64,000 nucleotides of DNA from Candidatus Abawacabacteria bacterium. GTDB lineage: Bacteria > Patescibacteriota > Gracilibacteria > RBG-16-42-10. The stretch spans positions 35,634 through 99,633 of the forward strand of contig JACQZO010000020.1 in the NCBI GenBank assembly GCA_016207805.1, given 5' to 3'. Positions 37,857-38,342 of this stretch are shown piece after piece. The notes beneath the pieces are model-generated. The model was given only the letters and a program-made list of their open reading frames with translations, ran no database searches and was not told where the DNA came from. The translations under genes and the position numbers were made by a program. The first letter of the stretch is position 1. Each line of letters begins with the position of its first letter.

Positions 37857-37887
37857 AAGCTAAAAGCTAGAATCTAAAATCTAAATT
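37857..37887. repeat. left inverted-repeat arm (AATCTAR heptamers) of four-helix-bundle cassette 1
   Basis: aagctaa aagctag aatctaa aatctaa att, directly after the member 18 stop. Complementary in heptamer register to 38310-38342. Confidence 0.8.
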
Positions 37888-37960
37888 AAAAAAGGCCGCT
37901 TGGACAAATCGAGTTTTTCATTTTTCTTATGTTACAAAGAAAATACTTTACTCATTATAC

Positions 37961-38311
37961 ATGAAGCAAAATATCGTTAAAGAAAAAAGCTATAAATTTG
38001 TGGTGTCAATATTTCCATTATATCGAATACTAAAGTGCAAACGTGAATATGACATTGTGAGGCAACTTTGGCGGAGCAGTACAAGTATTGGGGCAAACAT
38101 TGAAGAAGCAGTAGCTGCATATAGTAGAGCTGACTTCGGTCACAAATTGACTATTGCTTTAAAGGAAGCCAGAGAAACACGATACTGGTTAAACTTACTA
38201 AAGGATATTCAGCTACTGACTGATATTAATGATCATTTGGCAATGATCGAAAGCATCATTTCGATTCTTACTAGAACAGTAAAAACTCTTAATTCTCACC
38301 TTTCTCACTAA
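37961..38311 (+). CDS. four-helix-bundle protein (23S rRNA intervening-sequence protein family)
   Basis: 116 aa. QLWRSSTSIGANIEEAVAAYSRADFGHKLTIALKEARETRYWLNLL is the hallmark of the family (Pfam 23S_rRNA_IVP, TIGR02436-type). Confidence 0.85.
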   Translation: MKQNIVKEKSYKFVVSIFPLYRILKCKREYDIVRQLWRSSTSIGANIEEAVAAYSRADFGHKLTIALKEARETRYWLNLLKDIQLLTDINDHLAMIESIISILTRTVKTLNSHLSH

Positions 38312-38342
38312 TTTTAGATTCTAGATTTTAGCTTTTAGATTT
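38310..38342. repeat. right inverted-repeat arm of four-helix-bundle cassette 1
   Basis: aattttagattctagattttagcttttagattt fills the whole spacer between the four-helix-bundle stop and the convergent TrmB stop. Confidence 0.8.

Follow-up and report, generated by a model that had tools for sequence, protein, structure and literature searches.

A heptamer-bracketed four-helix-bundle gene of the 23S rRNA IVS protein family at the junction of two convergent protein-coding genes

What kind of genetic unit is a small four-helix-bundle (4HB) gene that, together with two inverted tandem heptamer arrays, fills the entire gap between the stop codons of two convergent protein-coding genes? The stretch of DNA analysed here (64,000 nt, the window) holds such a unit, 486 nt long, at 37857-38342 (Table 1), in a source genome of 1.23 Mb and 40% G+C whose assembly is 96% complete. 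The heptamer-bracketed 4HB cassette is real and far from chance. We regard it as probable that 37857-38342 is a complete cassette of the type of the 4HB-bearing intervening sequences (IVSs) of 23S rRNA and an insertion/deletion unit at a protein-gene junction, with arms that would form a stem in read-through transcripts and be cut there by RNase III. Judged from its sequence, the cassette works like a 23S rRNA IVS but is not one; its mobility and its RNA processing are inferred.

Table 1. Features of the cassette and its surroundings in window coordinates, with the arm classes of the six bracketed cassettes of the source genome
Feature	Position	Strand	Arm class	Basis
Unlinked ORF-less array	667..693	+	AAATCTA/AAAGCTA	TRF, array comparison
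Upstream host gene, Cys-rich array member 18	36186..37856	+		ORF list, sequence
Cassette 37857-38342 (C16:73594)	37857..38342		AAATCTA/AAAGCTA	
5' arm, about 4.1-4.4 tandem heptamers	37857..37887	+	AAGCTAA/AATCTAA	sequence, inverted-repeat search, TRF
73-nt leader inside loop, with promoter-like motif TTTCATTTT	37888..37960	+		
4HB protein gene, 116 aa, PF05635/TIGR02436 (S23p / 23S rRNA IVS protein family, related to Avd)	37961..38311	+		
3' arm, 4.7 tandem heptamers (ATTTTAG), inverted complement of 5' arm	38310..38342	+		sequence, inverted-repeat search, TRF, RNA fold
Convergent host gene, TrmB-like HTH regulator	38343..39101	-		profile match, ORF list
Second window cassette (C16:77429), same design	41740..42261	-	AAGACN	profile match, inverted-repeat search
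C7 cassette			AATTACG	
C18 cassette			GGCAGAA	
C21 cassette			AGAATGG	
C25 cassette			AGAGCTA	

The sequence-only reading that preceded this analysis had placed the 4HB ORF between inverted heptamer arrays, the 3' one filling the whole gap to the convergent TrmB stop. The flanking arrays were recovered by sequence inspection, inverted-repeat search and TRF, and the 3' array indeed ends where the TrmB-like gene stops (38343). The 5' array, AAGCTAAAAGCTAGAATCTAAAATCTAAATT, reads as the units AAGCTAA, AAGCTAG, AATCTAA, AATCTAA and ATT. It is abutted by the TAG of member 18 (37854-37856), and the arm complementarity begins further upstream, at 37849, covering that stop codon. The 3' array, AATTTTAGATTCTAGATTTTAGCTTTTAGATTT, overlaps the TAA of the 4HB gene and ends at the TrmB-like stop codon. 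The inverted-repeat search paired 37849-37880 with 38311-38342 (32 nt, 88% complementary) or, alternatively, 37857-37885 with 38313-38341 (29 nt, 90% complementary), the arms lying about 430 nt apart, and TRF gave period 7 for both (4.1 copies 5', 4.7 copies 3'). In the predicted RNA fold of 37850-38350, the arm-arm stem closes both the MFE and the centroid structures (z = -2.46). No direct repeat that could be a target-site duplication was seen on reading the bases beyond both arms, the ORF list showed no transposase in or beside the cassette and no recombinase gene adjoining it, and Rfam matched only two tRNAs in the window and nothing within the cassette loci. Both window cassettes sit within an array of about 20 tandem paralogues of a ~555-aa cysteine-rich protein (985-43998) with no Pfam or NCBIfam match; a similar array with a 4HB gene is found in a same-genus genome (locus L029).

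Within the loop, TTTCATTTT lies at 37916-37924, 45 nt before the ATG of the 116-aa gene. In both subfamilies, in the source genome and its family, nearly every 4HB gene has TTTCATAAT or a close variant of it 35-50 nt ahead of its start codon, and 5 of the 13 intergenic TTTCATAAT-type occurrences in the source genome are at 4HB genes. TTTCATAAT/TTTCATTTT looks like a -10-type promoter element (CATAAT), which suggests a promoter role. As a separate observation, subfamily-2 4HB genes (MF.FE.FPVY... type) carry a short leader hairpin just before the start codon, between TTTCATAAT and the ATG; in the relatives' loci L010, L012, L014, L016, L022 and L026 its sequence varies and its pairing is kept, and it may be a translational or autoregulatory element.

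The 116-aa ORF belongs to the PF05635/TIGR02436 (S23p) family, with scores above both curated cut-offs (PF05635, E = 5e-24, 84.9 bits, cut-off 33.8; TIGR02436, E = 4.6e-27, 94.4 bits, cut-off 24). It also matched PDB 2RLD, a crystal entry with five chains (E = 3e-22). We know of no catalytic activity or motif in the PF05635 family. The protein matched PF05635/TIGR02436 only and is not a Y1 (HUH) transposase. PADLOC returned no match for it, and a role in anti-phage defence was rejected on this ground. A pentameric Xanthomonas member of the family is cited in PMC4990558, and PF05635 is related to Avd (PMC10053308), the accessory protein of diversity-generating retroelements (DGRs), which has a homologous pentameric four-helix-bundle fold and in DGRs binds nucleic acid and the reverse transcriptase. 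In contrast to DGRs, the source genome has seven scattered 4HB copies and neither a reverse transcriptase nor template/variable repeats: RVT_1 (PF00078) had no match in the whole 96%-complete assembly. The 4HB genes are therefore not DGR Avd, and that reading was rejected.

Six of the seven scattered PF05635 genes of the source genome are bracketed by inverted repeats of 25-56 nt and share one geometry: a 5' arm, a leader of 52-104 nt, the ORF, and a 3' arm from -8 to +23 nt of the stop. When the 1095 ORF-called genes were scored by the best local complementarity between their 250-nt flanks, only seven reached at least 40, and six of these were the 4HB genes (6/7 4HB genes vs 1/1088 others, Fisher p = 2e-14). 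The second window cassette has arms of about 56 nt (41740-41795 and 42206-42261) of the AAGACN hexamer type with a GATCAT end, an ORF of 117 aa at 41796-42149 that matches PF05635, and TTTCATAAT at 42199-42191; a 250-aa gene adjoining it had no homologue in eight relatives. The sequence-only reading had staked its proposal on inverted repeats at the other copies of the family. This stood for six of the seven genes and failed for one, C19, the sole unbracketed intact 4HB gene, which nevertheless has both arrays: they lie next to each other ahead of the motif and the ORF. A truncated 4HB pseudogene on the minus strand at C5:26130-26330, of which the C-terminal helix alone is left, likewise has both arrays upstream; TTTCATAAT and a local hairpin of pyrimidine/purine heptamers come before it, which shows that cassettes decay at their sites. 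tRNA genes (tRNA-Met and tRNA-Glu) are the immediate neighbours of two of the seven 4HB genes, C19:44760-45371 and C21:57135-57696. Another observation concerns C27:9661-10102, where a 127-aa VOC/glyoxalase-like ORF (9690-10073) has AATTACG arms abutting its start and stop and no leader; it is the only small non-4HB gene of the source genome that is bracketed like the 4HB genes.

The association extends beyond this genome. Among the 20 4HB genes in genomes of the family, six scored at least 36 and several more 25-31. A wide locus search with a four-member subfamily alignment (an alignment of all seven paralogues was too divergent), taking one genome per species, gave 80 loci, mostly from Bacteroidota and also from Acidobacteriota, Chloroflexota, Brocadiaceae, Rickettsiales, Lentisphaerae, Firmicutes and CPR. 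At a score of at least 36, 38 of the 75 scorable 4HB genes (51%) were bracketed vs 5 of 206 neighbouring genes (2.4%; Fisher p = 9e-21), a proportion that describes the best matches to this protein subfamily and is not an estimate for the whole PF05635 family. The arms in these phyla share the period: their self-match was 0.71 at lag 7 vs 0.27-0.39 at lags 5, 6, 8 and 9. These counts bear on the alternative that an ordinary gene happens to lie between repeat-rich spacers, or that the locus belongs to another known system, either Avd or a promoter/gene switch that inverts. The spacers of the source genome have many heptamer arrays (208), a few non-4HB genes are also bracketed (e.g. C27:9690-10073 and C27:7570-9648), and the kinship of PF05635 with Avd would suit the second form of the argument. 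However, the enrichment at 4HB genes both within the genome and across phyla, the absence of RVT_1 and of a recombinase gene beside the cassette, and the finding by exact-protein look-ups that the only other assembly with these proteins is a 100% identical contig, from one sample, all speak against it. These readings are already largely refuted, and we consider the chance that any of them is right close to negligible.

Comparison of orthologous sites showed the cassette to be a discrete difference. G005, from another genus of the family, has both the TrmB-like gene (71%) and member 19 (78%) as orthologues in the same arrangement. At its junction, the stop codons of the TrmB-like gene and a convergent Cys-rich gene overlap, and arms, 4HB gene and hairpin are all absent. 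The whole 486-nt unit is therefore the difference between the two sites, in a filled/empty comparison that is between genera and in which the convergent gene of G005 shares only 43% identity with member 18. The presence/absence comparison among related genomes that had been proposed as a check thus found the unit missing as a whole. Persistence was also observed: the C25 cassette is kept at the syntenic site in same-genus G001 (flanks 87% and 68%, protein 72%), with the same arm class.

An alternative to an armed, complete cassette is that a hairpin already present took up, or kept, a bare promoter-plus-ORF unit in its apical loop. The arms would then be no part of the cassette, and the heptamer hairpins would be the genome's own intergenic punctuation or MITE/REP-like palindromes. 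We consider this rather unlikely. The site at C6:22024-22140 can be cited in its favour, where the source genome has an ORF-less AGAGCTA hairpin and the orthologous genes of G002 enclose a 4HB cassette. However, the hairpin and the G002 cassette differ in arm class, and the empty G005 junction, where this alternative would look for a hairpin, has none.

The repeats themselves supply further points on both sides. The six cassettes of the source genome have six different arm classes (Table 1; chance P = 0.03), the classes being read from unit counts; single-linkage at one mismatch fused nearly all units into one network. ORF-less arrays and hairpins of every one of these classes are found at other places in the genome, each class having 4-51 unlinked arrays (score at least 30), and ~15-20 unlinked arrays share the class of the 5' arm 37857-37887. 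One of them, at 667-693, matches that arm better (score 54) than the arm's own partner does (44), and the arms of the source genome in general resemble unlinked arrays of their class about as much as their own partners; pairwise maintenance of the stem is for this reason not demonstrated. The non-repeat end GAGATCATAAAGAC is common to the arms of the second window cassette and at least seven ORF-less palindromic elements whose loops are 12-109 nt long, and the gene of this cassette occupies exactly the apical-loop position of these palindromes. Cassette arms are purine-first (G:C 269 vs C:G 56), as are ORF-less hairpins (31 vs 11), a polarity that reads identically from either strand. The occurrence of ORF-less hairpins with the same arms for every class, the shared GAGATCATAAAGAC end, the match to unlinked arrays and the common polarity would all be natural if genes had landed in hairpins. 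In contrast, no conserved ends shared by the cassettes of the source genome were found at the cassette-loop junctions, and across phyla the arms appear to follow the protein (see below).

The loops of inverted repeats in the source genome fall into sizes of 0-40 nt (37 cases), 77-100 nt (about 21 cases) and 388-472 nt (eight cases, namely the six 4HB cassettes, one VOC-like gene and one non-coding stretch). No 4HB remnants were found in the ORF-less loops, and the leader motif occurred there at background frequency (2/38 loops), on which grounds these loops were rejected as decayed cassettes. The earlier suggestion that the ORF-less hairpins are empty relatives of the cassette thus survives in part: arm classes are shared, but the loops carry no recognisable gene remnants, so that the relationship holds only at the level of the arms. 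The cassettes do not form an IS or MITE family, since the arms differ among all six copies and 37857-38342 has neither a target-site duplication nor a transposase. A simple upstream periodicity score did not separate 4HB genes from controls.

Three other heptamer elements were noted in their own right. Window positions 55356-55502 (C16:90989-91135) are a copy of a 12-copy palindrome with AATTCTG/AATGCTG heptamer arms and a conserved core of ~77-97 nt, other copies of which lie at C15:16793, C16:7238, C16:147645, C21:16979, C21:35067, C21:38742, C22:5318, C23:23824, C5:2496, C5:38172 and C6:11751. The palindrome lacks both an ORF and an armed 4HB partner, and one of its copies precedes the 23S rRNA gene by ~340 nt. 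It could be MITE-like or encode a small RNA. C7:108459-108940 (about 960-1441 of locus L001) is a cassette-sized element with a 430-nt loop in AATTACA heptamer arms and no convincing ORF; Rfam gave no match for this loop even at E <= 1, and the element may be an RNA of no known family or a fully decayed cassette. Lastly, the TrmD-like tRNA methyltransferase gene at C9:37891-38872 (locus L008) has an in-frame AATTCAG array in its coding sequence (peptide ...NAIQHSEFSIQNS...) and is also flanked by AATTCAG-class arrays.

The arrays are uniform in size and co-occur with the gene family. The 208 period-7 arrays of the source genome have 4.26 +/- 0.73 units (median 31 nt) with a sharp cap at five units; such uniformity of length, with very few arrays above five units, is unlike that of slippage-driven microsatellites. 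In 40 samples of 20 kb from 37 related genomes, the density of period-7 arrays rose with 4HB gene count (Spearman 0.63, p = 1.4e-5), with 3.6 arrays per 20 kb in genomes with a 4HB gene vs 0.4 in those without, in a correlation that ignores phylogeny and base composition and in which a few of the samples contain cassettes themselves. Among 41 period-7 cassettes, protein identity was related to heptamer-unit distance (Mantel rho = -0.36, p = 0.0005), a signal that shared descent or base composition, both ignored by the test, could also give. Such a signal is expected if the arms travel with the gene, and it stands against a landing of bare genes in hairpins already present. As an aside, 38 of the 208 arrays lie inside called ORFs.

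The same observations invite a further alternative, an analogue of RAYT/REPIN systems in which each 4HB pentamer recognises its own class of array and helps to maintain or spread it. The gene would then be flanked on both sides by its protein's substrate, and the dispersed arrays would have arisen through the protein's activity. A cognate relationship of this kind would fit the array density, the Mantel signal, the five-unit cap set beside the pentamers formed by solved family members, and the pairing of six armed genes with six classes; it is possible, not likely. Against it, two large classes of the source genome, the AATTCAG type (about 42 arrays) and the AAGTGCG type (about 10), have no armed 4HB gene, and no catalysis is known in the family; moreover, the two correlations carry the confounders given above. 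As a full replacement for the IVS-type cassette, we judge the cognate system to be quite improbable. A broader conjecture, which we think doubtful and put forward tentatively, would make PF05635 pentamers and arrays of up to five heptamers one genetic system, in which each protein lineage would recognise its own class and the gene would move about flanked by two inverted copies of its substrate, with the dispersed arrays and hairpins found in many bacteria, and the ORF-bearing rRNA IVSs, as products or landing sites. If true, it would be an analogue of RAYT/REPIN in layout with no known enzyme.

We return to the preferred reading, an IVS-type cassette, and to what its arms might do in RNA. In a read-through transcript, coming from member 18 or antisense from the TrmB-like gene, the arms would pair into a duplex of ~30 bp, which RNase III, encoded in this genome at C16:101064-101453, would cut as in rRNA IVSs. 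Such cleavage would free the cassette RNA from the transcripts of its host genes and set a boundary between the two convergent genes; the motif inside the loop could in addition drive expression of the 4HB gene itself. It is plausible, though conjecture, that the pentameric 4HB protein acts on arrays of up to five units. The promoter-like motif comes after the 5' arm, so that mRNA of the gene itself may be without this arm and would then form no long stem; if the motif is a promoter, only read-through transcripts can form the arm-arm stem. In most loci of the other phyla, the 5' arm abuts the start codon, so that transcription must pass through it. Across 50 bracketed cassettes, no excess of G.U-compatible mismatches was found in the sense-strand arms (47 G.U-type vs 46 A.C-type). 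The pattern gives no sign of selection for sense-RNA pairing over plain DNA complementarity. Since transcription between convergent genes may run along both strands, it leaves an RNA stem neither favoured nor excluded, and one potential argument for such a stem falls away.

The bracketed package joins two puzzles: the function of the uncharacterised S23p/IVS 4HB proteins together with the origin of rRNA intervening sequences, and the reason why, in many bacteria, unexplained tandem heptamer arrays of 4-5 units outnumber all other longer simple repeats. The very small source genome displays the link cleanly, with 6/7 genes enclosed, each in a different class, and a five-unit cap; across related genomes, array density tracks 4HB count. 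The link can be tested experimentally.

Among known systems, the closest is the 23S rRNA IVS. ORF-bearing examples with S23p genes include those of Coxiella (helix 45), Leptospira, Brucella and Xanthomonas (PMC4990558). In the Coxiella burnetii IVS (Warrier et al. 2016; PMC4990558), the S23p ORF lies in the loop of a 28-bp terminal stem made partly of tandem heptamers, three tandem GACAGAT heptamers, variable in number among strains, lie just upstream of the start codon, and RNase III cuts within the stem. The cassette described here resembles it in carrying the same protein family in the loop, in size (486 nt vs 428 nt in Coxiella), in its complementary termini with a stem of ~28-32 bp, found here in the arms and in the MFE and centroid folds, and in tandem heptamers in the 5' part of the stem before the ORF, with a 73-nt leader intervening in our case. 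For both units a selfish or mobile nature has been proposed, and no mechanism is known. The proposal that the stem-plus-ORF layout follows the IVS design was therefore well founded, both on the Coxiella precedent and on the specificity of the brackets for 4HB genes in the source genome and across phyla. Unlike an IVS, the cassette lies between two convergent protein-coding genes, not in helix 25 or 45 of 23S rRNA, and its leader places a conserved promoter-like motif inside the loop; RNase III excision is published for Coxiella and is putative here. The 23S gene of the source genome (C21:17465-20461) has no large insert (2997 nt vs a 2925-position model), and the cassettes of this genome are thus the non-rRNA form. 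23S_rRNA_IVP genes have been reported wedged in cas operons (PMC3936711) and in rRNA insertions of CPR bacteria (PMC11270868), in passages that name no arms, and our literature searches found no description of a heptamer-armed cassette outside rRNA.

REP/REPIN elements with their RAYT genes offer a second comparison. There too a gene lies between inverted copies of a short repeat that is also dispersed as intergenic hairpins, with one class per copy. In contrast, the 4HB protein does not belong to the Y1 transposases, no catalytic motif is known in it, and the arms are tandem arrays, not single palindromes; the resemblance is one of layout only. The third comparison is with the abundant heptanucleotide repeats of other bacteria, such as TAACTGA in Beggiatoaceae (PMC4679880), the GGGNATC heptamers of Xanthomonas and Nostoc with their preference for four units (PMC4692102), and the 4-5 unit heptamer elements of Geobacter (PMC2700814). 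As described in the passages concerned, these are likewise intergenic, near stop or start codons, of ~4-5 preferred units and of several classes per genome, and the same passages name no associated gene family. The arrays of the source genome differ in that they bracket 4HB genes, and across related genomes array abundance co-varies with these genes.
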